Shown one piece after another: positions 1,454 through 28,537 of a stretch of DNA of 32,000 bases. The position numbers and the translations under genes were made by a program. Source of the DNA: Candidatus Heimdallarchaeota archaeon (GTDB taxonomy: Archaea > Asgardarchaeota > Heimdallarchaeia > JABLTI01); NCBI GenBank assembly GCA_030614005.1, contig JAUWKS010000010.1, forward strand, positions 1 through 32,000, written 5' to 3'. A model generated the notes under the pieces. That model ran no database searches and was not told the origin of the DNA. It worked only from the letters and a program-made list of their open reading frames with translations. Position 1 is the first letter of the stretch. Each line of letters begins with the position of its first letter.

Positions 1454-2140
1454 TTACGCGATCAAATAGTTGCTTAAATCTTCTTTCAATTTTGGTTTAT
1501 GAGTAAAAGGATTAATATTTAATTCACGGAATTTCAGATACAAAAATAGAATGTAAAGTAAATCAAATATTAAACAACCAATTCCAAGAAACTTTACAAA
1601 AATACCATTTTGAAATTCATAGAAATTCATGAACACAAGGATTGTTGGACCTAATGTTCCAAGCATTTTAGCCAAAGCAATATAGATGGATTGTCCTGAA
1701 ACATTATTTCGTCTGAATAACATTGCTAAGAAGAGTATTGACATAACTAGATTCTGTAAAAAGGCTGAATATACTCCGGAGAAATCATCAAATTCAATTG
1801 TAATAAATAGTACTCCTAGAAAGCTTGTAGAAAATAACAGTAGAAATTGAGGAATAAACAGTCGTTTGTTCAATGAATTTGAGAAGTCTTTTTTGTAATA
1901 TAGAAAATATGTTACGACTATTACTACATCCAAAGCAAACCATACATAATTAACAATTCTTTGAGCTAATATCATAGGATAAATTGCGGCAAAAATAAAT
2001 TCCCAAGAAAGATTTAAGCAAAGAGCTACTATTGGCATACCATAATTCTTATCTTTAAAACCACGATAAATAATTAATACATATGTGATGGACCACAATA
2101 CAGCACTTGAAGCGGCTAAAAAATGACTGATTTCACTCAT
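1454..2140 (-). CDS. PaxB/Pyr4-family integral membrane terpene cyclase homologue (about 7 TM)
   Basis: Motifs WSITYVLIIYRGFKDKNYGMPIVALCLNLSWEF, NYVWFALD, QNLVMSILFLAML-RR-N-SGQS...KMLGT and LIFDLLY match the PaxB/Pyr4 pattern, including the WE glutamate and the C-terminal aspartate. GAGGGGG RBS. Confidence 0.8.
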   Translation of the reverse strand: MSEISHFLAASSAVLWSITYVLIIYRGFKDKNYGMPIVALCLNLSWEFIFAAIYPMILAQRIVNYVWFALDVVIVVTYFLYYKKDFSNSLNKRLFIPQFLLLFSTSFLGVLFITIEFDDFSGVYSAFLQNLVMSILFLAMLFRRNNVSGQSIYIALAKMLGTLGPTILVFMNFYEFQNGIFVKFLGIGCLIFDLLYILFLYLKFRELNINPFTHKPKLKEDLSNYLIA

Positions 2141-2347
2141 TGATTCCCCTCTTAATTTCTAAATCTGTTTTTTATTTATACTTTGTTGCTCCTTATCATC
2201 TAAAGATTTAGTGTACTAATACTTTTCTTATCAGATAGAATTGTCATTTTAAGAGTAAAAAAATTCCATTGCACGTCTTTCTTCACAAAGATCTTAGAGA
2301 AAAGCTATTTTATAGAAGAAATAAACTCTTTGAACTTTTCTCATCAT

Positions 2348-3022
2348 TTAGGGAAGCATCCCATGTAATAGAACTTTTATTTGTATATTAACAAGGCTTT
2401 CTAATTCTTTTTCAGGATTAAAATTATCATTAGCATCTTCTATTGGGAATAAATTGATTGGAATCCAGATTAGACTCAAGAATAATCTCGTACATTCAGC
2501 AGGTTTAAGATCTTTTCTAAGATTGCCAGAATCTTGACATTTTCGGAAATAGTCATTTAGTATTTCTATTATCTTTAAATCTCCAAGTGAGCTTAATAAA
2601 TTGCTAATGTAATTTCTAGGTAAATTACATGCTTCGGTCATATTTTGAATATGATGTGGAATGCTAACTCTTTCTCTAAAAAATAGATATAATAAACTTT
2701 GATGTTCCCCGATTTTTTTCTTCAGTAACTTCCACATTAATGGTAAAGTAACTTCAAGATCCGGTATCATTACTTCTATTGTTTCAAGTAATTCCTGTGC
2801 AGATTGAAGAGCTATTTTAAAACGGGTTTCAAAAATTGCGCACAATATTTGGTATTTATTTCTAAAAAACCTATACAACAAAGTCTTCGATATTCCATCT
2901 GCAACAGCAATGTCATTCATGCTTGTTGATTCAATGCTTTTTCGTGCCATTAAATCAATTGCAGTTTGAACAATCGATTCTCTTCTATGATTATTTTTTA
3001 ATTTTCTTTTAATAGGAATCAA
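2348..3022 (-). CDS. TetR/AcrR family transcriptional regulator
   Basis: N-terminal HTH: SIVQTAIDLMARK...TSMNDIAVADGISKTLLYRFFRNKYQIL. TTG start. Confidence 0.9.
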   Translation of the reverse strand: MIPIKRKLKNNHRRESIVQTAIDLMARKSIESTSMNDIAVADGISKTLLYRFFRNKYQILCAIFETRFKIALQSAQELLETIEVMIPDLEVTLPLMWKLLKKKIGEHQSLLYLFFRERVSIPHHIQNMTEACNLPRNYISNLLSSLGDLKIIEILNDYFRKCQDSGNLRKDLKPAECTRLFLSLIWIPINLFPIEDANDNFNPEKELESLVNIQIKVLLHGMLP

Positions 3023-3068
3023 ATCTAATCAAATGACCCTATACACTAATGTTTATATAAGTGTTATG

Positions 3069-3094
3069 TTTTGTTTACAATATTGTAAACAAAA
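3069..3094. promoter_or_regulatory. Perfect 26-bp palindrome, candidate TetR operator
   Basis: TTTTGTTTACAAT|ATTGTAAACAAAA is self-complementary and is followed by an extra GTAAACAAAA half-site (3095-3104). It lies between tetR and the ABC operon. Confidence 0.75.
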
Positions 3095-3100
3095 GTAAAC

Positions 3101-3113
3101 AAAAGTTTATAAA
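3101..3113 (+). promoter_or_regulatory. BRE + TATA box for the ABC operon (probably leaderless mRNA)
   Basis: AAAAG-TTTATAAA ending 24 nt before the GTG at 3138. Confidence 0.55.
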
Positions 3114-3137
3114 AACATAGATAAATAACTGATAAAA

Positions 3138-4361
3138 GTGAACAGAAAAATGAGCTTACAAACAATTTCCTTCGCATTAAAAAACACTTTCCGTAAAAAA
3201 TCTATCGCATTTATATCAATTTTAGGCATAGGTATAGGAATAGCATTAATGATTGTTATTTCTTCAGCAACAATTAGCATGGATAAAATGATGACTGATA
3301 CTTTGGCAAGTAGAGTTGGAGATGTAGAAGTTACAGAATATGGTAAACCACCTGTATTATCAGCTTTACCTGAGAATATAACGACGATCATAAATACTAT
3401 TGAATCAAAAGATCAAATAAAATTTATGAGTCCAGAAATAGTAGTAAATGGATTTACACAATTTACCTCAGCATTTGAACTTCCAAGCATGGTTAACTTA
3501 TATGCGCGTGGAATAGATCTAAAAAACGATGAATTATTTGAAGGTCCAACTACAAGAATAATTGATGGAGAGATTTATAATGATACACTTGAGATTATTG
3601 TTGCAGATCTTGTTATGGATATTGCTGAAAAAGAATATCCCGGTTGGTTGAAAATTGGTTCAGTAATCCCTTTTCAAATTAATGCAACTTATTCCATTAA
3701 TTTAACTCTTACAGGCACATATGAAACTGAAGAAAATCCTGCTGCACTACTTGTAGAACCAATCTTTGTTATGTCAATTGAATCAGCCCGTTCTATTAAT
3801 AGTCTTTTCTTACCCGAATCCTTTACAGGTTTTAGCGCAGTAAAAATAAGATTTAATTCTGAAACCATTAATAAAACACAAACATATGCTGAAGAACTAA
3901 AAGAATTAACTCCAAAAATGACCGTTAGTTTACTTGGTTATTTTGGAGGAACAGTTGAAGATCTCCTATTGATATTCGATGTTTTCTCCACAGTCATCTC
4001 AACAGTTTCTGGAATAGCAGGAGCAATGGCAATACTTGTTGCACAATTAATGGGAGTAAATGAGCGATTGAAAGAATTTGCTATAATGAAAGCAACAGGG
4101 TGGAAAAATCGAACTATTTTCTTTGAAATAGTTTTGGAATCGGTAGTTTTTGGTATAATCGGTTCGCTTATAGGAATATTATTTGGTTCAGGTTTAATTT
4201 ATACTCTTGAATTAGCATTAGGTCAAAGTTTCATAAAATTGACATGGCAATTAATTTTATTGGTTTTGGGTTTTGGTCTAGGTATTGGAGTAATAAGTGG
4301 GTTTTTGCCTGGCTTAAAAGCAGCTCGCATAAAACCTATGGAAGTTCTAAGGAGCTCATAA
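3138..4361 (+). CDS. ABC transporter permease, MacB/FtsX/LolE type
   Basis: N-terminal TM, large extracellular domain, then ERLKEFAIMKATGW motif and three C-terminal TMs. Confidence 0.9.
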   Translation: MNRKMSLQTISFALKNTFRKKSIAFISILGIGIGIALMIVISSATISMDKMMTDTLASRVGDVEVTEYGKPPVLSALPENITTIINTIESKDQIKFMSPEIVVNGFTQFTSAFELPSMVNLYARGIDLKNDELFEGPTTRIIDGEIYNDTLEIIVADLVMDIAEKEYPGWLKIGSVIPFQINATYSINLTLTGTYETEENPAALLVEPIFVMSIESARSINSLFLPESFTGFSAVKIRFNSETINKTQTYAEELKELTPKMTVSLLGYFGGTVEDLLLIFDVFSTVISTVSGIAGAMAILVAQLMGVNERLKEFAIMKATGWKNRTIFFEIVLESVVFGIIGSLIGILFGSGLIYTLELALGQSFIKLTWQLILLVLGFGLGIGVISGFLPGLKAARIKPMEVLRSS

Positions 4362-4377
4362 AGGAGGAATTAAAAAA

Positions 4378-5115
4378 ATGGCAGACTATATTTATCATGA
4401 CCAAGAAATTGACTCAGACAAATCAAATGACTATATCATAAAAGTATCTGGTCTCTCAAAACTTTATAATGAAGGGTTACCTTCAATGGTTAAAGCTTTA
4501 GATCAGGTATCATTTGGTATTAAAAAAGGAAAGATGATTACAATCTTTGGACCTAGTGGATCTGGAAAAAGCTCACTGCTTAATATCCTTGGATGTATGG
4601 ATTCAGCAACATCTGGAAGCGTTTTCCTTGAAGATATTAGAATTACTGAATTATCTGAGCGTGAATTAGCAGATATTCGAAAGCACATGATTGGGTTCGT
4701 TTTTCAAGAATTCCTTCTAATCCCTACTTTAACAGCAATAGAAAATGTTCTTCTTCCTGTTATTCCTGGTGGAATCAAGAAAGAAGACCGTGAACGTGCA
4801 ATGAATCTACTAACTCAAGTAGGTTTAAAGGAGCGTGTAAAACATAAACCAAAAGAGCTAAGTGGTGGAGAAAAGCAAAGAGTAGCAATAGCAAGAGCTC
4901 TGATAAATAATCCAAAAATTATTTACGCAGATGAACCAACAGGTAATCTTGATACAAAAACTGGTGATGAGATTATGCAACTTCTACGAAACTTAAATCA
5001 AGAATTAGGAGTCACAATTGTAATTGTCTCTCACGATCCATCAGTTTGGGATAAAACAGATTACCTTTTGAAGCTAAAAGATGGACAAATTGACCCCCAC
5101 AAAATAACCAGCTAA
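4378..5115 (+). CDS. ABC transporter ATP-binding protein, LolD/MacB type
   Basis: GPSGSGKS, LSGGEKQRVAIARAL, ADEPTGNLD, VSHD; GGAGG RBS. Confidence 0.95.
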   Translation: MADYIYHDQEIDSDKSNDYIIKVSGLSKLYNEGLPSMVKALDQVSFGIKKGKMITIFGPSGSGKSSLLNILGCMDSATSGSVFLEDIRITELSERELADIRKHMIGFVFQEFLLIPTLTAIENVLLPVIPGGIKKEDRERAMNLLTQVGLKERVKHKPKELSGGEKQRVAIARALINNPKIIYADEPTGNLDTKTGDEIMQLLRNLNQELGVTIVIVSHDPSVWDKTDYLLKLKDGQIDPHKITS

Positions 5116-5198
5116 AATCTAACAAAGAACTTTAGTTAAAAAATTAACTAAAAAGGGAAAAATATATGCAAACTGTAATGTGAACATATAATATAAAC

Positions 5199-5230
5199 GA
5201 AGACTAGATTTACGAATATAGTCTTCTTTT
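5199..5230 (+). terminator. Hairpin plus T-run downstream of the ABC operon
   Basis: GAAGACTA-N12-TAGTCTTC followed by TTTT. Confidence 0.4.
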
Positions 5231-5377
5231 CAATTCCCAAATTTTCAATTAAAAAAAACAGATAGAATAAAATTCATATATAGAAACTTGTGAGTGCAAA
5301 AAAAATCTAAAACTAATTAAAAAGAAAATTATAACTGATAAATTACTAAAATAAATGAAATTATGAAATAGTCGGAT

Positions 5378-6439
5378 TTGATAATTATGAATAAAAACAC
5401 CAATAGTCGAATAACAGCATTTGTCTTTTCTGGAGGAGGAAGCTTAGGTGCAATTGAAACTGGAGCTTTAAAAGCACTTGTTGAACATGACATTCATGCA
5501 GATTTGATTATAGGAACTTCAATTGGAAGTATAATCGGTGCAATGTTCGCTTATAATCCAACCATTGAATGTGTCCAAAATATGGAAATGCTTTGGGGAG
5601 AAATTAAAACAAGAGATGTTTTTCCTAAATCTTTGTTTACTTCTCTTTTGAATTTGGCTACTTCAAGTCAATATGCATTATCAACAAAAAAGTTGCGCAA
5701 ACTAATTAGCGAGAAAATCCCTTATACCAAAATTGAAGACACAGAGCTACCTTTGTATATTATTGGTTCTGATATTATAACTGGAGAAGAGGTTGTTTTT
5801 AATAAAGGCTTGATATTAGAAGCCTTAATGTCAAGTGCTGGAGTTCCTGGAATTTTCCCACCACAACATATGAACAAACGTATGATAGTTGATGGTGGAA
5901 TGTTGAATAATTCAGCAATCTCAACAGCATTTAAATTGGGAGCAGAACGTATAGTTGTTTTTCCTATTGGTGTTCCTCCAAATGATGTAAAACCAAAAAA
6001 CATTATGGAAATACTCATTCGAAGTGTCGTTTTTCATTCTAACCGTCAATTGGCTTCAGATATTCATCTTTACAAAGATAAAGTTGAACTAATAATAGTT
6101 CCTCCACCTGATCAAATAGATGTGGGACCACATGAATTTTTCAAATCAAAGCTCTTGATTAAACAAGCATATTCTAAAGCAAATGAATGGTTGAAAACTG
6201 AAGGGTTTTCACCAAATGCTGAAACATATCAACAGCCTTGTGATGTTCATACAGCACAAATCAATTTTGTTGAAGCTATTATTCCTAAACCCGGGACAAC
6301 AACAATTACTCTCCTATCTGAAAACATCAAAGAAAGAAAAGAAACTTTACAAAAAACAATTGATAAAACAACTGATAAAATACAAACATCATTGCGTAAG
6401 AAAAAAAAGGGAATGAAGGAAAAAGAAGTCAATGATTAA
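5378..6439 (+). CDS. Patatin-like phospholipase
   Basis: GGGSLG oxyanion loop, GTSIG nucleophile, DGG motif; charged helical C-terminal tail. Confidence 0.93.
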   Translation: MIIMNKNTNSRITAFVFSGGGSLGAIETGALKALVEHDIHADLIIGTSIGSIIGAMFAYNPTIECVQNMEMLWGEIKTRDVFPKSLFTSLLNLATSSQYALSTKKLRKLISEKIPYTKIEDTELPLYIIGSDIITGEEVVFNKGLILEALMSSAGVPGIFPPQHMNKRMIVDGGMLNNSAISTAFKLGAERIVVFPIGVPPNDVKPKNIMEILIRSVVFHSNRQLASDIHLYKDKVELIIVPPPDQIDVGPHEFFKSKLLIKQAYSKANEWLKTEGFSPNAETYQQPCDVHTAQINFVEAIIPKPGTTTITLLSENIKERKETLQKTIDKTTDKIQTSLRKKKKGMKEKEVND

Positions 6440-6554
6440 ATTGAAAATCACATATTTAATCATTAGAATTTTTTAATCAAAATAACTAAAAAATTTAAAT
6501 TAAAATTTAAAAAAATCTCATTTAAAATATTGATCTTAAGGAAATGAATGATCT

Positions 6555-7406
6555 TTGATTGAACTTTCTGCTGTTTCACCCAACTCGAAAGAAATCACTG
6601 AATTAATTATCGAAATGGATGACGGAGTAAAATTAAAAATCGTTAAATTTCAACCAAAAAACAACCTCTTAAAACCACCAATTTTCTTTATACCTGGTTT
6701 TCTTTCAATTATTACCCATTGGGGTGTTTTAATTGATCATCTCGTGAAAAATGGTTATACCTTATATGTAATGGAAACACGAGAAAAGCAATCTTCATCA
6801 GCAACAAAGAAATCAAAATTCAATTCAAAAAGATACCTTGATGATTTAGCAGAATCCTTGCTAGAAGTTAAATTAAAAGATAATTTTATTTTAATGGGTT
6901 CTTCTCTTGGGTCTGGAATGATAATAAAATATCTCTCAGCTCAAAAAAATAATGGATCTCCTTATCCAGAGAAAGGGATACTTCTAGAAGCAATTTATAA
7001 CACAAATAGTATAAGGAAAGCAATATCTATAGCAAAACTGCCAAAAAGTGTTTTTTCAATGGTAAAAAACATCTCAGCAAAAATTGTTCCAAAAGTTTTA
7101 AGACAATTTAAACTATACCCAACAAAATATCAAACATTAATAGAATCAATAAATCAAGCGGATTCTTCTATAATGCGAATATGTTTAATAAATGCTAAGG
7201 ATGAGAATCTTAGAGCTTATTTGAAGGAGATAACTATTCCAGTATTCGTTGTTGGAGCTATTGAAGATAAAATTCATGATTTAGAGCAAAGTAGAGCAAT
7301 TTCTGAGGAAGTGTCTAATGGTAGTTTTGATTCAATTGACTTTAATAATACTATTAGTCTTGAAGAATTAGCTAAAAGAATTTCAAGTTTTATTGAAAAT
7401 AACTAA
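6555..7406 (+). CDS. Alpha/beta-fold hydrolase
   Basis: PPIFFIPGFLS, GSSLG nucleophile elbow, VFVVGAIEDKIH acid loop. Confidence 0.85.
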   Translation: MIELSAVSPNSKEITELIIEMDDGVKLKIVKFQPKNNLLKPPIFFIPGFLSIITHWGVLIDHLVKNGYTLYVMETREKQSSSATKKSKFNSKRYLDDLAESLLEVKLKDNFILMGSSLGSGMIIKYLSAQKNNGSPYPEKGILLEAIYNTNSIRKAISIAKLPKSVFSMVKNISAKIVPKVLRQFKLYPTKYQTLIESINQADSSIMRICLINAKDENLRAYLKEITIPVFVVGAIEDKIHDLEQSRAISEEVSNGSFDSIDFNNTISLEELAKRISSFIENN

Positions 7407-7478
7407 TTACTACTTTAGAAAATTATTTTCACAATTATTATTTAAAGAATAAATTGAATGAAATCTTGTTATTGAGAT

Positions 7479-11942: not shown

Positions 11943-14900
11943 TTATTGTTCACCCTCCATTTCTACAGATGGGCCAAAGTCAGCCAGGTTATCTTTCGGT
12001 CTAACTCTAACAAAAATCTTCAAGCCAATATATACGATAACTATTGCGCCTATAGCAATCCAAAGAATAATCACTCCGCCACCTTTTTCATTAACTACTA
12101 CAAGTGAAGCATAAGCACTGACTCCATTGCGATCAGTAATAGCAACGGAAACAATGTGTTCTCCATGACTCAGATAAATAGTTATTTCAGAATCAAAAGT
12201 ATCCGCAATTTCTGTTCCACTTAGAAATATCTGAGTGTAGACTTCTTGAGCCGCAGTTTCCCAAGATAATTGGTACTTGCCACTACTCCCTGGTTGTATT
12301 TCTATATCCAAAAGATCAATAGTATAGAGATTATTTATCGCTCGTAGTCTCCCAAAATTATCAAGAAAAACAATGTTTCCTTCTAAAGTTCCATTTAATT
12401 CAGAAGGTAAGAATGCAGACATTACTAACCCATCAATTTCTTTCCAAATTAGACCGGTATCACTATCTATGATAATCGAAGAAAAGTCTCCTGTTGGAGT
12501 GATAAGAGTCATCAGAATATCCTCTTTGTTGTTTCCAGAAACATCGCCAAGATTTTTCATAAATGCTGCAGGCATCATTGTTGGATAAGAAAACTCATCT
12601 TTGCGCACAGGAACAATACTATAACTGGCAGCTATTGTTGCTAATGCCGTTGATACATCAATTAGTTCTAAAGTCATTCCCTGAGCGGTTTTATCTATTC
12701 CGCCCCCTTGATTAACCGACCAAGCGAAAAGCAACTCTGGAATAGCATCACCATTCATATCGGAAACGTAATCAGTAAAGTCTGTTATTCCTGCTCGCAT
12801 AAATTGTTCCATATAATAAAATCCAGTGTCAAAATTCGCTTTATTAGCAAAATACAAACTTAGGAATGTTCCATCTGAACCATCAATGATATAGTACCCT
12901 TGAGAGAGGGAATTTGCATCACCACCACTCCAAGGAACAAAAGCAATATGATCTCGAATTCCGTCATTGTTGAAATCTACTTGATAGAGTTTCAAATTTA
13001 AATCATTATAATTTCCCTCGATATCATATGCAATTATTCCTGTTTCCAAATCAATAATTGTAATTAACATTACATCATTTTGATTTCTATTTAGCGATAG
13101 AATTGTTTCATTATGTGCTTCATCCATATGGAGTACAAAATTTTCTTCATCTATCCAACCCTCGACATTTTGCCAATTCCAATGAAGAGTAGAAAAGTTT
13201 GTTGAGTCTACTAAGACTGCGCGATTGTCACCAATGATTAGGATATCCTCAGCAGAATTACCAACTAAATCACCAATATTAAAGATAACGCCTCTATGTG
13301 GAAGCCAATTTCTGTAATGAGGATCGAAGATATCAGTTTCCCGAGTAAGATTCCATAGATAACTTCCATCTATACCACTGTGACAATACAAGTAACCATT
13401 TTGACCTGTTACAAGAATATCTTGAATTCCATCTGAATTTTGATCTTCAACAGGTGCAATTGATATTATTTTCAATTGATCAGGATTATAAACCCAATCA
13501 GGATTCGTTGCAGTGGCTTCCCAAACAATAGAACCATTATTTCCATCAAGTAACAGAACCTTTGAAATGTTCTTGAGGAAGAATGATTGTGTAGTTGTTT
13601 CTCTTTGAGCTAACCATAAATCTGGGATACCATCACCTGTAATATCATCACCTAATTTTACTTGGCTGTATCCACCACTTAACAATAACTGATTCTCCAT
13701 AGACATTTCATGATGCCAAATCGTTTCTCCAGTAGTGCCATCAACAACTGCTAATTTAGTGATCGTATAACGATTTGTTGACCAACTATCTAGATAATGG
13801 ATACTCTTCTGGAGAAAATCAACCGTTGAATCATTATTTATATCATAAAAAATTTCTATTTGTTCTTGAGCAGAGATAGTTAAGCGCCAAACCAAATCTC
13901 CAGTTTCACCATCAAGAAGATAGAGACCGTATCCTGCAAGAAAAATAAGAACTTCAGATTCTAGCGAACCTGTAATATTATTAACAGAAAAAACATAATT
14001 GCCATTAAAAGGATAATCACTCCCTTGAGTTTGAGAACTAGAAAATAAATCAAAATTCATACTACTAGTAAATGCTGAAATCTTCCATTGATCAATCAAA
14101 GTATTATTCTCTAGTGAATAGACATCAATTAGAAATGTGTTGGTGGAATTCTCAGTTCCCGTTGGAATGATCAATTTAGTAAAACTACCATTGGCATCTT
14201 GTGAACTATAAGAAGTAACAGATTTTACTTCATCAATATTAATAGAAAATAAACTCCATAAAACATTCATTTCATTTTGCTCAATATCAATAACTGATAC
14301 AGTACTATTTCCGAACGTTCCCGTTCCACGACCTAATGTAAGAATTTGAGGGTCGGAGGATAGAGAATCTAATTCAAAAACCATGACATTATAAAAATTT
14401 TCAGAACCAAAATAAGCCATATCTTGTGTTGTTCCTGCAGCTGTAAATGCTTTGACTTCGTCGAGTAATTTTCCATTAGTAATGTCAAATATTGAAACAT
14501 ACCCAGTTTCTGTGGATATTATTACATCATCTTTAGTATCACCATTAAAATCTTCTATTATCTTAACATCATATACATTCTGTTCTATTGAAATAGTGAT
14601 ACCAGTATCTGTGTCTGTATATTGAATTGAATCTGTAGCTTGTATGGACCATATTTCTTGCCCAGTTTTTCCGGAAACAACTAATAATTCACCATCTTGT
14701 GAACCAAAAATGATTTCATTCGTACCGTCTGAATCTAAATCATCAGATAATATATCGAGCGACCAAATATCATCAGTTGCGCTTGCTGACCACAAAAGAG
14801 AACCATCGAGAACATCTAATGCGTAAATAGTATTGTATGATGAAACTACCACATCATCTAATCCATCACTTGTTAAATCATCAATTTGCAAACCATTCCA

Positions 14901-15437
14901 TGAGCGAGTTTCTTCCTCAGAGAAACCTATGCCATCTACAAAGACGGTTACTGTAGGTCGGAATGACCAGATTTTTTCCCCAGAAAAACCATCAATTAAT
15001 TCAGTATTGTTAAAATCTTGAGTGTCAACAGTGATTAGTACATCTCTGATGTTGTCGTTTGTAACATCCTTTAAAGGAGTAATACTTAAGATTGCCCCTG
15101 GAGTAGAAAGAAACCAATAAATTATTCCTCGTTCGACATTGATTTTAGAAAGCCCAATATGAGAACCCATGTAGAGTATTTCCTCAGAACCTGCTCCACT
15201 CAAAGAATCTAAGATTGGTCTACAAGTAGTATCACCTGGCAAACCCGAAAATGATGACCATATTTCACCATCATTGGAATCAGATACAGCTGTTTGTGGT
15301 GGCAAAGATGGGTTTGCTGAAACAGCATTCGAAGTAGAAATTTTACTCGTAGTAATTAAAGTACTAACTAAAAATGAAATAAAAGGAGTTGTAATAAGTA
15401 TAAACAAAAGTATAATTGTTTTTTCCTTTCTAAACAT
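11943..15437 (-). CDS. Large membrane-anchored FG-GAP/PQQ-like beta-propeller surface protein (about 1164 aa)
   Basis: Signal-like N-terminus from ATG 15437 (GGTG RBS). 11 clear D-x-[NDT]-x-D-G-like Ca-blade motifs and repeated DG-x-TG-x-x-x-W motifs, then an Ig-like segment, a TM helix and a 21-aa tail. Confidence 0.8.
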   Translation of the reverse strand: MFRKEKTIILLFILITTPFISFLVSTLITTSKISTSNAVSANPSLPPQTAVSDSNDGEIWSSFSGLPGDTTCRPILDSLSGAGSEEILYMGSHIGLSKINVERGIIYWFLSTPGAILSITPLKDVTNDNIRDVLITVDTQDFNNTELIDGFSGEKIWSFRPTVTVFVDGIGFSEEETRSWNGLQIDDLTSDGLDDVVVSSYNTIYALDVLDGSLLWSASATDDIWSLDILSDDLDSDGTNEIIFGSQDGELLVVSGKTGQEIWSIQATDSIQYTDTDTGITISIEQNVYDVKIIEDFNGDTKDDVIISTETGYVSIFDITNGKLLDEVKAFTAAGTTQDMAYFGSENFYNVMVFELDSLSSDPQILTLGRGTGTFGNSTVSVIDIEQNEMNVLWSLFSINIDEVKSVTSYSSQDANGSFTKLIIPTGTENSTNTFLIDVYSLENNTLIDQWKISAFTSSMNFDLFSSSQTQGSDYPFNGNYVFSVNNITGSLESEVLIFLAGYGLYLLDGETGDLVWRLTISAQEQIEIFYDINNDSTVDFLQKSIHYLDSWSTNRYTITKLAVVDGTTGETIWHHEMSMENQLLLSGGYSQVKLGDDITGDGIPDLWLAQRETTTQSFFLKNISKVLLLDGNNGSIVWEATATNPDWVYNPDQLKIISIAPVEDQNSDGIQDILVTGQNGYLYCHSGIDGSYLWNLTRETDIFDPHYRNWLPHRGVIFNIGDLVGNSAEDILIIGDNRAVLVDSTNFSTLHWNWQNVEGWIDEENFVLHMDEAHNETILSLNRNQNDVMLITIIDLETGIIAYDIEGNYNDLNLKLYQVDFNNDGIRDHIAFVPWSGGDANSLSQGYYIIDGSDGTFLSLYFANKANFDTGFYYMEQFMRAGITDFTDYVSDMNGDAIPELLFAWSVNQGGGIDKTAQGMTLELIDVSTALATIAASYSIVPVRKDEFSYPTMMPAAFMKNLGDVSGNNKEDILMTLITPTGDFSSIIIDSDTGLIWKEIDGLVMSAFLPSELNGTLEGNIVFLDNFGRLRAINNLYTIDLLDIEIQPGSSGKYQLSWETAAQEVYTQIFLSGTEIADTFDSEITIYLSHGEHIVSVAITDRNGVSAYASLVVVNEKGGGVIILWIAIGAIVIVYIGLKIFVRVRPKDNLADFGPSVEMEGEQ

Positions 15438-15641
15438 GAAAGTGACACCAACCGATATTTGAGAGCTAATTCCTGTTAGATAAGTAACAGATGTTATTCT
15501 CTCGAGATAATAATAAAATATCTTAATCTTATTTAAAAACAATTAAGATAGAGGCAAGTAAAAAAAAGAAAAGTAAAAATGATAAAGAAAATAAATCCGC
15601 CAACCTTCATCCAAACGTCAAAGCGCAATTACATCTTCTTC

Positions 15642-16667
15642 TTATTGCTTGAGTTTTTGATCGAGTTTCGTAAATTTTTTCCACGCTTTATTTATCTCTT
15701 GTTGATGATTTTTCAAACCTGTGGGAAGCTTGTCAATATCTAATTGAAGACTTTTCCAATGTATAATCGGAGAAGAGTCTATGTTGTTCTCTTGTTTTGT
15801 ATTCTTTTTTAATGGCGAGAGGTCAGCACCCAATACACACTTTTTATGGAGATAAATCTTGTATAGGTTTTTGCACAATATGAGTGGGGAGAGGTCTATA
15901 GAAATAATCTGATTTCCAGCTAGGTAGATCTCTTTTAATTCTGTACATTTTGCAAGTGGCGAGAGGTTGACTGCAACAAGCTGATTAATAGCAAGGTCGA
16001 GATCTCTTAGTGCAATGCAATTTGCGAGAGGTGAGAGGTCGATAGAGGTGAGCTTATTGTCTTCAAGGCCAAGATCTTCTAGTACTATGCATTTTGCTAG
16101 TGGGGAGAGGTCAATAGATGTAAGCAGATTCTCAGAAAGACAAAGCTTTTCTAGTGCTATGCACTTTGAGAGCGGTGAGAGATCGAGCTCTGTAAGCCGA
16201 TTATCATTAAGGTAGAACTCTTTTAATTTTGGGCATTTTGCAAGAGGCGAGAGGTCAATAGAAGCAAAAAGATTATCATGAAGGTAGAGCTCTTCTAGTT
16301 TTGTGCACTTCGCAAGTGGTAACAGATCAAGCTCTGTAAGCTGATTTCCTGAAAAAAAGGGAGTACCAATAATGAGTATTTTTAGTTCTGTGCACTTTGC
16401 AAGTGGCGAGAGATCAAGTTCAGTAAGCTGATTTTCATCGAGAGCGAGCCTTTGTAGTTTTGTACACTTTGCTAGTGATGAGAGATCAATTGTAGCAAGT
16501 TCATTAGAAGAAATGTCGAAATCAAGTATTTCTGTTCCCTTTCCAATTTGTGAGAGATCGACTGTTGCAAGCTGATTATTAGAAAGATTAACCTTTTCGG
16601 TATCCGTACTCATTTTACTAGTGAATTGTTTTCCATAGGAATCAGTTCCTTTTACAACAATCGTCAT
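15642..16667 (-). CDS. Leucine-rich repeat protein (about 10 repeats of 24 aa)
   Basis: Repeat consensus xLTxIDLSPLAKCxxLxxLxLxxN; no signal peptide. Confidence 0.95.
   Translation of the reverse strand: MTIVVKGTDSYGKQFTSKMSTDTEKVNLSNNQLATVDLSQIGKGTEILDFDISSNELATIDLSSLAKCTKLQRLALDENQLTELDLSPLAKCTELKILIIGTPFFSGNQLTELDLLPLAKCTKLEELYLHDNLFASIDLSPLAKCPKLKEFYLNDNRLTELDLSPLSKCIALEKLCLSENLLTSIDLSPLAKCIVLEDLGLEDNKLTSIDLSPLANCIALRDLDLAINQLVAVNLSPLAKCTELKEIYLAGNQIISIDLSPLILCKNLYKIYLHKKCVLGADLSPLKKNTKQENNIDSSPIIHWKSLQLDIDKLPTGLKNHQQEINKAWKKFTKLDQKLKQ
15850..16570 (-). repeat. 72-bp coding tandem repeats of the LRR gene
   Basis: GAGAGGTCAATA recurs at 16105 and 16249 (2 x 72 bp) with related units throughout; one unit has a 15-bp insertion. 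Boundaries are approximate. Confidence 0.8.
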
Positions 16668-25116: not shown

Positions 25117-26673
25117 TCAATTCCAATTATGCAACTTGTAATATTCTGTAACCATCTTCTTAATATCTACTACTGAACCTTTTGTAGGACCCCTTTTTAA
25201 TGGTTCTTTTAGAAATCGTTCCGGTAAAGTATCATCTCTTTGAGACATCCCAAACTTCTGGTTAAGTTTCTTTTGCAAATCAATTGACTCATTCATAATT
25301 TTTTGAAGATAGGCAGGTGTATATTTTATTCCTGTACAAGTTAGTAAGAGAGAGGATATGTTATCAAAATTCAAAACATCCATACATAACCCGATGTTTT
25401 TACACATAGTGAGGCAATCAGTAAGTAAGGCTATTTTTTCTGAATAGAAAACTAATGCTGCTTTACCCTCTTCAGATAAACGATCAGCTGCTTTTTCTGT
25501 GCCAAATCTTTTTTTGGCCTCTGCTTTTCTATTTGTAAGTTCAAAAAACGGTTCTGCTCGTAAATGATCTCCTCCTCTAGAGGCAATAGCGTAAGTTAGT
25601 CCGTAGGCTTTAATTCCACGAGGGTCACCATTAATAATATCTAATCCTTTAACATGAAGAACTAATTTTTGAGCCGCTTCACTAAAATCTTGTGAAAGCA
25701 GAAAAGTACCATTAGCAAGACGATTACCGATGCCTTCTCTGAAAGTTATCTGTTTAATCACTTCTCGAACTTTGTCATTGTCTCCCCACTTTAAATCAAG
25801 CCCATCTAAATCACAAGGTTGAATTAAACCTTTTTCTTGGCATTCCATTATCCAAGCAATTACTTCAGAAGTAGATATAGAATCAAGACCCATCTGATTT
25901 AACCAATGATTCATTTCAAGAGCAAAAGGAAGATGCTCATTGCCTATCTTTGAAGTAAAGCTACATAATGTTTCATATTCTGGTCCCTCAGCTTCTATGC
26001 CTTCGCAAATGTAATATCTTGAACAATGTAAGTTACAATTAAAACAAGCTTTATTTTTCACTTTGAAAGTTCTAGCTAGTTTTTCGCCGGAAACTTTGTC
26101 AATATAATCACAAACACCATCTTGGAAATGATTAACAGGTAAAATACCAATTCTATTTAAATCAGACATTAGCATTGTTGTACCCATTTGGTAACGTTTA
26201 GTATATTCATTGTGATTCTGAATATCTTGTTCAATTTTCTTTACTTCAGCTAAAAATGCTAATGGTTCAGCAAATTCAATCGATTTTGAACCACGAACAG
26301 CAATTGCTTTGAGATTTTTAGAACCCATGACAGCGCCCATACCAGTTCGTCCATTAACACGATTTCCACTCGAGACAATGGTTGAATAGAGAACTTGGTG
26401 CTCTCCAGCAGAACCTATTGCCGCAACCTGAATTTGATAATCTCGATGTATTCTTCTAATGATGCTTGTTGTTTCGACTATTGTTTTTTCTTTAAGTCGT
26501 GAACCATCACAAAATTCTACACCATCGTTTGTAATAAAAAGGTAAGATAATTGGTCAGCTTTTCCAGTAATTATAATATGGTCAAATCCAGTTAGTTTCA
26601 TTTCAGGACCAAATGATCCACCTGCAGCTGAATCACCAAGAATTCCTGTTAATGGTGATTTTGCTGTGACAAT
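25117..26673 (-). pseudogene. aor: Tungsten aldehyde:ferredoxin oxidoreductase family gene lacking its 5' end
   Basis: GAVMGSKNLKAI, CFNCNLHC, GPEYET, GLDSIS, SRGGDH, DTLPERF. In-frame homology IVTAKSPLTGILGDSAAGGSFGPE extends upstream of ATG 26601 to about 26673, then ends with no usable start codon. Confidence 0.75.
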
Positions 26674-26771: not shown

Positions 26772-27791
26772 ATGAAACAGGCATTTATTACAGGAGCAAA
26801 TGGATTCATAGGTAGCTTTCTTACGAAACATCTAGCTGAACAAGGAATACAAACAACTGCCTTTATTCTCAAAGGAACAGATTGTGATTTACTTCGTATT
26901 ATCTATCCCACACTCAAAAACGTAACAATTGTTGAAGGAAATATTCTAGATAAAGAATCTCTTAATGAGCTAGTTAAGGGAAAAGATTACATTGTTCATC
27001 TAGCAGGAGTAGTTATTGGTTATGAGCAAGAGGATTTTGATCGAATAAATGTTAAAGGCACAGAAAATATCCTAAACGCTTGTATAGAATACAATCCTAA
27101 AGTAGAACGAATAGTACTCACATCCTCAAGTGCAGCTGCAGGATTTGGTACTGCTGATAACCCATTGACAGAGGATCAAGAACCACGACCTTTACCGGGT
27201 GATTTTTACGGTATATCAAAATATCGGATGGAACGTTTAGCTGAAACCTATAAAGATAGATTATCAATAACAATTATTCGACCTTGTGCGGTGATAGGTC
27301 CAGGCAATCAAGTGGTACAGGAAAATTATCCATTAATTAAAAAGGGATTTAAATTAGAGTTCCTAGGTCCTAAACGTGCTGCTAGCACAATTAATGTTGA
27401 AGATTTAGCATTTGGTTTTTATCTTTGTATGGTAAAACCCGAAGCAAAAGGAGAAGTATTCTATTTCTGTGCAAATGGAATTACTTCTTTATCAGAATAT
27501 CAAGAAATAGTTAGTTATATAATTTCAAATCGAAAATATGGAACATTGATTAGTATACCAATTCCCCGATTTCTTATGAAGACTTTGGCATTAATAGTTG
27601 AAAGAGTTCATCGGATAAAAAAGAAACCAGCGCCATTTATTAGCAAAACAAAAATTATTGGTATTTATGCCCCAGGGCAAGTAGTTAGTGCTGAAAAAGC
27701 CAAGAGACTTCTTGGATGGAAACCTAAATACTCAATTGTTCAAAGTATTATAATTGAAGCAAATTGGTTTATTGAGCAAGGTTGGATCTAA
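26772..27791 (+). CDS. Extended SDR, NAD-dependent epimerase/3-beta-HSD-like
   Basis: ITGANGFIG, HLAG, TSSSAA, YGISK, IIRPCAVIGP. Confidence 0.92.
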   Translation: MKQAFITGANGFIGSFLTKHLAEQGIQTTAFILKGTDCDLLRIIYPTLKNVTIVEGNILDKESLNELVKGKDYIVHLAGVVIGYEQEDFDRINVKGTENILNACIEYNPKVERIVLTSSSAAAGFGTADNPLTEDQEPRPLPGDFYGISKYRMERLAETYKDRLSITIIRPCAVIGPGNQVVQENYPLIKKGFKLEFLGPKRAASTINVEDLAFGFYLCMVKPEAKGEVFYFCANGITSLSEYQEIVSYIISNRKYGTLISIPIPRFLMKTLALIVERVHRIKKKPAPFISKTKIIGIYAPGQVVSAEKAKRLLGWKPKYSIVQSIIIEANWFIEQGWI

Positions 27792-27793
27792 AA

Positions 27794-28537
27794 ATGACTG
27801 AACAAGTCCTAGAAGCCAATATTGAGAAAATCATTGATGATGTACCAGCAAAGGAACTACTTTTGCTAAGCATACCTATTAGCATTCTTTTTGCAATATC
27901 TGGAATGGATTTCATCGGGTATTTTATTTATCTAATAACAAGAACTTCCAGCACAGAGATTTACTCGAGAAGTTTACTCAACGTATTACTAATTGGATTT
28001 CTATCAACAGCAATTGTGCTCTTCATCGTGCCCTTTTTAATTAATAATTTTCGATGGAAGAAATCTTTGGCTTATTTTGGCACACAGAAAGGTAATTGGA
28101 AAATAGGGTTAATAGTTGTAGGAGTTGTCATTCTATTCATGCCACTTTTGTATTTCAATTCGCAAGAACAAACAATGATAAACACCTATCCCTTGACAAA
28201 AGATGTTGTATTCTCATGGCCTGTATTTGCCCTCTACGAATTATCATATATTGTTTTTTATTACATTCCTTATGAATTCTATTTTAGAGGAGTACTACAA
28301 TTAGGGTTAAGCAAAACAAAGAAGAAATGGCAAAGTATTCTATTTGTTACAATTCATACAACAGTACTTCATATTACAAAACCTTGGGCAGAAATAGTAG
28401 CAGCATTGATTGCTGGGATATTATTTGGCATTTTAGCTGAGAAAACAGATTCTTGGGTTTATGTTTTCATTATTCACATTACTGCTGGAGTGGTAACAGA
28501 TACGTTTTGTGCTCTAGGGTATTTAGGAGTGCTTTAG
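27794..28537 (+). CDS. CPBP (Rce1/Abi-like) intramembrane glutamic protease
   Basis: PYEFYFRG, TTVLHITKP, IIHITAG...D. ATG at 27794 preferred over TTG at 27782. Confidence 0.85.
   Translation: MTEQVLEANIEKIIDDVPAKELLLLSIPISILFAISGMDFIGYFIYLITRTSSTEIYSRSLLNVLLIGFLSTAIVLFIVPFLINNFRWKKSLAYFGTQKGNWKIGLIVVGVVILFMPLLYFNSQEQTMINTYPLTKDVVFSWPVFALYELSYIVFYYIPYEFYFRGVLQLGLSKTKKKWQSILFVTIHTTVLHITKPWAEIVAALIAGILFGILAEKTDSWVYVFIIHITAGVVTDTFCALGYLGVL

Follow-up and report, generated by a model that had tools for sequence, protein, structure and literature searches.

The cyclase gene and its product

The 32-kb window analysed here, which is the whole stretch of DNA under study, is contig C40 of a 3.6-Mb genome from a Heimdall-group Asgard archaeon of anoxic marine sediment, with DNA recovered from cold-seep and marine-sediment samples. 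On its minus strand, at positions 1454..2140, lies the coding sequence for a homologue of the Pyr4-family transmembrane terpene cyclases, which was identified from its open reading frame (ORF), its Pfam profile match, and an AlphaFold2 model. The gene is situated beside genes for a TetR-family regulator and an ATP-binding cassette (ABC) exporter. The sequence comparisons indicate that the gene probably encodes a catalytically competent, integral-membrane terpene cyclase of the class-II-like type, which would initiate its reaction by protonation.

The ORF is intact, starts with an ATG, and encodes a protein of 228 amino acids (P0001). An initial annotation of the window, made from the sequence alone, had described an intact protein of this length with several transmembrane segments and four motifs: GMPIVALCLNLSWE (residues 34–47), WFALD (67–71), SGQS (148–151), and FDLLY (192–196). 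The ORF, all four motifs, and seven transmembrane helices (TM1–TM7) were confirmed, and the agreement greatly exceeds what chance would produce. An exact-sequence look-up of P0001 returned no identical entry on record. The GC content of the gene is 29.1%, which is compatible with the 32.5% of the window. The comparison of P0001 with an 87%-identical copy, P0002 (L094), gives a ratio of non-synonymous to synonymous substitution rates (dN/dS) of 0.19, which indicates that the gene is functional and under purifying selection. Contigs from two separate studies span the junction of the cyclase and tetR genes with one to two mismatches, and therefore the arrangement is not an assembly artefact.

P0001 is a member of the Pyr4 family by both profile and fold. 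Its assignment to the Pyr4/PaxB family in the initial annotation agrees with its top profile match, PF25129 (Pyr4-TMTC), which scores 105.5 bits (E 4e-30; cutoff 27). Residues 4–201 of P0001 cover positions 16–222 of the 227 in the profile, and the cyclase scores 107.6 bits in the genome-level PF25129 search. No NCBIfam model matches P0001. The AlphaFold2 model of P0001, built on 34 homologues, has a mean predicted local distance difference test score of 91.6 and a predicted TM-score of 0.87, and is composed of seven helices of 17–27 residues each (residues 3–29, 37–53, 58–81, 92–116, 123–144, 152–171, and 181–206). The positive-inside rule and the charges of the loops predict that the N-terminus is located outside and the C-terminus inside. 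The 30 best fold matches among the AlphaFold models of Swiss-Prot proteins are all fungal Pyr4-family cyclases, with TM-scores by query of 0.70–0.85, and include Pyr4, PaxB, AndB, AusL, AscF, MacJ, and MfmH. The founding members of PF25129, Pyr4 of Aspergillus fumigatus and PaxB of Penicillium paxilli, have TM-scores to P0001 of 0.82 and 0.81, respectively. MfmH and MacJ, fungal cyclases of drimane-type meroterpenoids, share the seven-helix fold with TM-scores by query of 0.82 and 0.80 and sequence identities of 26% and 23%. Among solved structures, there is no sequence relative of P0001 and no member of the Pyr4 family. The nearest solved folds of the model are the seven-helix SWEET, cystinosin/PQ-loop, and KDEL-receptor proteins, which are weak matches (TM-score ~0.55, E ≥0.0075). 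These matches to the predicted structure hint that the Pyr4-type cyclase family may derive from a transporter-like fold of the SWEET, cystinosin, and KDEL-receptor type.

Conserved residues of the putative active site

In the AlphaFold2 model, proposed in the initial annotation as a way to inspect the acidic cavity, the conserved residues E47 of TM2, D71 of TM3, and D193 of TM7 form a buried acid cluster at mid-membrane depth. The cluster is surrounded by the aromatic residues W16, Y20, W46, W67, F127, F137, and Y196, all of which are conserved. E47 (codon 2000..2002, minus strand) is located in the middle of TM2 within the motif N43-x2-W46-E47 and is the presumed Brønsted acid, corresponding to E63 of Pyr4 and E60 of DmtA1, a cyclase of drimentine biosynthesis in Streptomyces. 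D193 (codon 1562..1564, minus strand) is located in the middle of TM7 within the motif F-D-x2-Y196 and corresponds to D218 of Pyr4 and D214 of DmtA1. D71 (codon 1928..1930, minus strand), from the WFALD motif in the middle of TM3, completes the buried trio of acids and may be equivalent to Asp96 of MacJ, the additional acid of olefin-protonating members. The conservation of these residues was counted over 148 representatives of clusters at 50% identity. Glutamate is present at the position of E47 in 143 representatives and aspartate at that of D71 in 145, whereas position 193 is aspartate in 136 and asparagine in 8. Tyr196 is kept in 143 of the representatives and Gln150 in 147. In alignment A1 of the prokaryotic clade to which P0001 belongs, the N43-x2-W46-E47 motif is invariant, and there are 24 invariant columns overall.

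The active-site residues of Pyr4 are E63 and D218 (PMC6486709), and mutagenesis of DmtA1 showed that W29, Y33, N56, W59, E60, D214, and Y217 are important (PMC6173783). The clade-invariant residues W16, Y20, N43, W46, E47, D193, and Y196 have a spacing identical to that of the seven DmtA1 residues, and D193 is offset from D214 of DmtA1 by +21. The fold alignment places residues 4–208 of P0001 onto residues 20–233 of Pyr4, with offsets at the two ends of +16 and +25, which put E47 at position 63 (+16) and D193 at position 218 (+25) of Pyr4. As judged from these end-offsets and from the DmtA1 spacing, E47 and D193 appear to occupy the positions of Pyr4 E63 and D218, in line with the proposal of the initial annotation that the glutamate of the WE motif and a C-terminal aspartate are catalytic. 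MfmH and MacJ, like P0001, have the glutamate of TM2 and the aspartate of TM7. They may also share the further acid in TM3, as D71 falls on Asp96 of MacJ by offset.

The resemblance to SWEET, cystinosin/PQ-loop, and KDEL-receptor folds would also fit a seven-helix transporter or lipid sensor that shares only ancestry with the cyclases. However, the model is much closer to the characterised cyclases (TM-scores of 0.70–0.85) than to the transporters (~0.55), every residue with a catalytic or essential role in DmtA1 and Pyr4 is invariant here, and three buried acids in the middle of the membrane are costly unless they are used. A non-enzymatic role is therefore highly improbable.

Genomic neighbourhood of the cyclase gene

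The gene for the TetR-family regulator (2348..3022, minus strand, PF00440) is co-oriented with the cyclase gene and located 207 bp upstream of it, and the pairing of the two genes is retained in the 87%-identical relative L094. The putative upstream signals of the cyclase gene occupy positions 2146..2180 of the minus strand. They comprise a GAGGGG ribosome-binding-like site at 2151–2146, 5 nucleotides 5′ of the cyclase ATG, and a TATAAATA box at 2180–2173, ~35 nucleotides 5′ of it. They were read from the sequence and are tentative, because such motifs are common in DNA with a GC content of 29%. There is no intrinsic-terminator-like site between tetR and the cyclase gene. A T7 run is located ~90 nucleotides past the tetR stop, and the cyclase gene may thus have its own promoter.

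Divergent from tetR is a MacB-type ABC exporter (3138..5115, plus strand; PF02687, PF12704, PF00005), which consists of an FtsX-like permease (3138–4361, plus strand) and an exporter ATPase (4378–5115, plus strand). It is followed by genes for a patatin-like lipase (5378–6439) and an alpha/beta hydrolase (6555–7406). The intergenic region between the divergent tetR and ftsX genes contains, at positions 3069..3104, a perfect 26-nucleotide palindrome, TTTTGTTTAC-AATATT-GTAAACAAAA, and then a third half-site, GTAAACAAAA. As the operator of an archaeal MacB-type exporter under TetR control, the palindrome is a clean candidate. The half-sites cluster only at 3069–3104, and none is present upstream of the cyclase gene. 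A paralogous TetR/FtsX/ABC module, the TetR of which is 37% identical, is located on contig C35 of the same genome (G000:C35:107471-111100, L105), and similar modules are present in every genome of the genus. In the C35 module, a gene for a HEAT-repeat protein is positioned downstream of tetR, in the place of the cyclase gene, so that the cyclase has apparently been added to a type of module that is native to the genome. The cyclase and the TetR/exporter module may be functionally linked.

The closest sister genome, the metagenome-assembled genome of Heimdallarchaeota HM7_B34 (G010), belongs to the same genus and is syntenic with the window, but genome comparison revealed that it cleanly lacks a segment of 5.74 kb (1687..7428). 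Besides tetR and the genes of the ABC exporter, the patatin-like lipase, and the alpha/beta hydrolase, the absent segment includes two thirds of the cyclase gene, counted from its 5′ end. G010 joins window position 1686 to position 7429 with a one-base filler and retains a frameshifted remnant of cyclase residues 152–226. The cyclase was therefore present before the species split and is dispensable. In another genome of the genus, G004, the gene for a tetratricopeptide repeat (TPR) protein is joined straight to the ZIP gene, which shows that the whole block is variable and forms an accessory region within the genus. A search for the deleted form in natural populations yielded one low-depth joint, in run X6 (2446 to 7447), which mismatches the G010 junction and is unreliable, and this candidate was rejected.

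The association with the regulator and the pump could mean that the locus is a TetR-controlled xenobiotic island, in which the enzyme modifies or neutralises an exogenous lipophilic terpenoid or epoxide and the MacB-type pump exports the product. The tetR–cyclase pair with divergent FtsX/ABC genes is kept in two intact Heimdall copies, the G010 deletion removes the whole set at once, the palindromic candidate operator separates tetR from ftsX, and the patchy, accessory distribution of the gene suits a niche function. Nevertheless, we consider the island unlikely. No operator half-site precedes the cyclase gene, which, given the HEAT-repeat protein at its place in the C35 module, looks like an add-on. 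TetR is outside the top 25 families of the 150 genes immediately adjacent to homologues in the clade, and thus occurs there at most twice, and a second Asgard genus has the cyclase without TetR or ABC genes beside it. The Heimdall copy is the only one in the clade that was seen beside a TetR/MacB module. The radical-SAM genes found next to the cyclase in the second Asgard genus are unrelated to one another (a TIGR04013-family protein and a TYW1-like protein), and their position is a coincidence.

Three other features of the window were recorded. A CPBP/Rce1-like intramembrane protease (27782–28537) is encoded between two genes for proteins resembling NAD-dependent epimerases and 3-beta-hydroxysteroid dehydrogenases. 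The ORF of a tungsten-type aldehyde:ferredoxin oxidoreductase (25117–26601) starts at position 97 of the profile of the N-terminal domain, and may be N-terminally truncated or have a miscalled start. A 1199-residue PQQ/FG-GAP beta-propeller protein (11943–15542), which may be a surface protein, adjoins a 341-residue leucine-rich-repeat protein (15642–16667) and an ABC-2 transporter.

Host and origin of the cyclase gene

The genome is 90% complete, with an estimated contamination of 3.4%. Together with the bacterial affiliation of the nearest named homologues outside the lineage, the latter value raises the question of whether the archaeal cyclase is an artefact of bacterial DNA in the bin. Such contamination is very unlikely, and we give it practically no weight. 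The flanking TPR, HIT, ZIP, and SDR genes have counterparts with 67–88% nucleotide identity in each of the ten other genomes of the genus, the order of G010 follows that of the window across the junction, and the GC content of the cyclase gene fits that of the window. Furthermore, independent assemblies from separate studies bridge the cyclase gene to tetR, and the tetR/ABC module has a paralogous counterpart in this genome. The initial annotation had presumed an Asgard archaeon from the letters, and the host does belong to the Heimdall group of these archaea.

The cyclase family is rare in Asgard archaea. It is present in 5 of 399 Asgard genomes, and there is no family match in the ten other genomes of the genus or in the 40 nearest relatives. 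The 87%-identical P0002 is encoded on a metagenomic contig with the same order of tetR, cyclase, and divergent FtsX genes. The phylogeny recommended in the initial annotation groups the cyclase with Chloroflexota-dominated bacterial sequences, not with the other archaeal clade. The starred subclade that contains P0001 and P0002 also comprises eight sequences from Chloroflexota, two from Chitinophagaceae, others from metagenomes, and the second Asgard genus, which is represented by three genomes at ~44% identity. The starred clade of Nitrososphaerota and Methanoperedens is separate from the Heimdall subclade, and an approximately unbiased (AU) test rejects monophyly of the archaeal sequences as a whole (p = 0.0036). 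The trees are quick trees, and the groups were in part named after the first tree was seen. The Heimdall copy has a long branch, with a stem of 0.58 substitutions per site, and a C-terminal tail of 20 residues. Taken together, the Asgard cyclase gene is a rare, dispensable accessory gene that was probably acquired laterally. Its acquisition would have placed the cyclase beside a native TetR/ABC-exporter module.

Stand-alone clade of prokaryotic homologues

Homologues of P0001 at 41–52% identity are abundant. The profile search retrieved 1758 clusters at 50% identity, and at least 542 species-representative genomes, both bacterial and archaeal, encode a relative from the clade, the members of which are named "transmembrane-type terpene cyclase" in UniRef. 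The bacterial hosts belong to Bacteroidota, Chloroflexota, Bacillota, Cyanobacteriota, Actinomycetota, and Binatota, and include Adhaeribacter, Pontibacter, Lysinibacillus, Ktedonobacter, Nostoc, and Anaerolineae. The archaeal hosts are Nitrososphaera, Nitrosopumilus, and Methanoperedens. The family is sporadic outside Asgard archaea as well, being found in 1 of 201 sampled genomes of the Nitrosopumilus phylum and 8 of 401 Actinomycetota genomes. A possible link to the cyclohexane ring of crenarchaeol was dropped, since the family is present in none of the 200 other sampled genomes from the phylum of the ammonia-oxidising archaea.

The clade members have no conserved neighbour. When the genes within five positions on either side of the homologues were clustered by BLAST, the largest neighbour cluster was represented in 9 of 79 loci. 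In Pfam scans of the 150 genes directly next to the homologues, each family was encountered four times at most, and none of the top 25 families is related to terpenoids. P0001 thus belongs to a stand-alone clade without a conserved partner gene. Row L055, from a genome flagged as unpublished (G601) at the centre of the Actinomycetota sample, is included in the tree and the neighbourhood statistics, but no conclusion depends on it.

The stand-alone arrangement differs from that of the characterised Pyr4-family cyclases, all of which come from natural-product gene clusters. The bacterial enzymes DmtA1, XiaE/XiaH, ZigF, TylF, and GroF resemble P0001 in their length of ~230–250 amino acids and their seven transmembrane helices, but are clustered with prenyltransferases, prenyl synthases, cyclodipeptide synthases, or cytochromes P450 (P450s), whereas the members of the clade never are. 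MfmH and MacJ likewise belong to polyketide/prenyltransferase pathways and have a known farnesylated aromatic substrate, while the archaeal gene lacks a pathway partner. The context of a meroterpenoid cluster, with a prenyltransferase, a prenyl synthase, and a flavin monooxygenase or P450 epoxidase, was found neither in the 32-kb window, from which the initial annotation had already reported the prenyltransferase and flavin epoxidase to be missing, nor recurrently in the 79 loci. Such co-location is a feature of the known pathways and not of the protein family.

Of the 1107 bacterial Pyr4-like sequences counted in a 2026 survey, which left archaea out of account, only the 264 with neighbouring terpenoid genes were retained (PMC13307353). 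The stand-alone clade probably overlaps the roughly three quarters of the 1107 sequences that were set aside (PMC13307353). The initial annotation knew of no characterised archaeal member, and the literature that we searched contains no paper that links the Pyr4 family with archaea or reports an activity for a member of the stand-alone clade.

Probable initiation of the cyclisation

Pyr4 and PaxB are products of biosynthetic gene clusters and open an epoxide that a flavin monooxygenase has introduced, whereas for P0001 there is no cluster, no epoxidase was found, and the host is apparently anaerobic. Other members of the family begin from an alkene. DmtA1 starts cyclisation by protonation of a C=C bond, for which it needs an extra acid, D94, which is absent from the epoxide-using XiaE/XiaH and corresponds to Asp96 of MacJ (PMC6173783). 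MfmH and MacJ protonate the olefin directly, without an epoxide (PMC12891896, PMC9546479), and the bacterial ZigF has been proposed to start from a terminal alkene (PMC13307353). D71 of P0001 lands on position 96 of MacJ by the +25 offset, an equivalence drawn from offsets and not from a residue-level alignment. MfmH and MacJ are ranked first and fourth among the fold matches of P0001, and MfmH has the highest identity. No P450, haem-copper oxidase (COX1), or cytochrome bd oxidase was found in the 90%-complete host genome, and Methanoperedens, Anaerolineae, and Clostridia are among the other carriers of the stand-alone clade. A start from a C=C bond, protonated directly without an epoxide, is therefore favoured by the olefin-protonating enzymes among the nearest folds, the precedent of ZigF, the apparently anaerobic host and clade distribution, and, more tentatively, the third conserved acid. 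The initial annotation had considered cyclisation without epoxidation a possibility.

A cyclase that depends on an epoxide could still operate in a dispersed meroterpenoid pathway like those of fungi and Streptomyces, if an aromatic prenyltransferase and a flavin monooxygenase encoded elsewhere in the genome supplied it with an epoxy-prenyl aromatic compound to cyclise. Most characterised members of the family use epoxides, and unclustered pathways exist in fungi (PMC12891896). The genome search suggested in the initial annotation did retrieve UbiA prenyltransferases on other contigs, of which the MenA-like enzyme and a third, divergent one could serve such a pathway, and 11 matches to FAD_binding_3; it retrieved no P450. 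However, the missing P450, haem-copper, and cytochrome bd oxidases, combined with the cold-seep and marine-sediment source, make an oxygen-dependent epoxidation unlikely, and prenyltransferase or monooxygenase neighbours do not recur in the 79 homologous loci. In addition, an identity of 45–50% across phyla is more readily explained by a single common substrate than by a diversity of secondary metabolites, and olefin-protonating enzymes provide the best fold matches. We thus regard a dispersed, epoxide-dependent pathway as rather unlikely.

Proposed mechanism and substrates

We propose that P0001 would act as a protonation-initiated cyclase within the membrane. A prenyl chain would enter sideways from the bilayer, and its terminal C=C bond would be protonated by E47, with N43, Y20, and D193 as tuning residues and D71 as a helper. 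The aromatic residues around the acid cluster would then steer the carbocation to a monocyclic or polycyclic product, and no preceding epoxidation would be required.

The genome encodes one prenyl diphosphate synthase and three UbiA enzymes, of which one is similar to digeranylgeranylglyceryl phosphate synthase, one to MenA, and one is divergent; all are located on other contigs. The MenA-like 1,4-dihydroxy-2-naphthoate prenyltransferase (G000:C53:1000-2800, L102) scores 130 bits, just under the cutoff of TIGR00751. Marker PF02621 (MqnA/D) of the futalosine pathway was not found in the genome, and neither were a squalene/phytoene synthase (SQS_PSY) or a squalene-hopene cyclase, so squalene and carotenoids appear to be unavailable. 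Plausible endogenous prenyl chains are those of geranylgeranyl-derived lipids and of a MenA-type prenylated naphthoquinone.

Several observations weigh against a catalytically competent, epoxide-independent cyclase of lateral origin. The equivalences to Pyr4 and MacJ residues rest on end-offsets and spacing and not on a residue-level alignment, and the name cyclase is extended to the members of the stand-alone clade by homology. E47 and D71 are separated by 24 residues, compared to 34 between E60 and D94 of DmtA1, so that the equivalence of D71 is tentative. Two divergent homologues from Actinomycetota likewise retain the acid, and the 8 Actinomycetota genomes with the family provide too few cluster-type sequences to relate D71 to oxygenase neighbours; D71 is at most a tentative marker that would separate alkene users from epoxide users. 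Since the genome is 90% complete, the missing oxygenases may be merely unassembled, and the genome does contain the 11 FAD_binding_3 matches, at least some of which are probably geranylgeranyl reductases. As for the origin of the gene, a second Asgard genus is placed in the subclade, within which monophyly of the Asgard sequences is only borderline rejected (p = 0.045, or 0.063 with P0003).

A bolder extension of the protonation mechanism would make the stand-alone clade as a whole a membrane cyclase that needs no oxygen and has as its direct substrate a housekeeping polyprenyl lipid already resident in the bilayer. We put this forward as a speculation that is more likely to be wrong than right by a wide measure. 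In this archaeon, the target could then be a lipid precursor with an unsaturated geranylgeranyl chain or a naphthoquinone made by MenA, on its side chain.

Significance for Asgard archaea and the Pyr4 family

For the biology of Asgard archaea, the finding is mainly a caution, because the cyclase is not an ancestral archaeal or eukaryote-like trait. Its novelty is lowered by the very large size of the clade, which already includes other archaea, and by the rare, probably lateral, and dispensable occurrence of the gene in Asgard genomes. The larger interest lies in the clade itself. The largest prokaryotic part of the Pyr4 family lacks gene clusters, partners, and a known product, while the sole survey that we found filtered the stand-alone sequences out (PMC13307353). 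The window extends this branch to Asgard archaea that live without oxygen, with the full catalytic apparatus and a third buried acid. The retention of this apparatus and of D71 under selection argues for an oxygen-independent, self-sufficient activity that may modify lipids. The question is directly testable, since cultured carriers of the gene exist (Pontibacter, Adhaeribacter, Lysinibacillus, and Ktedonobacter racemifer). If the housekeeping-lipid extension were true, the clade would provide anaerobic bacteria and archaea, the closest archaeal relatives of eukaryotes among them, with a one-gene route to ring-bearing isoprenoid lipids, and no carbocation-type terpene cyclase would have been shown to operate in an archaeon before it.

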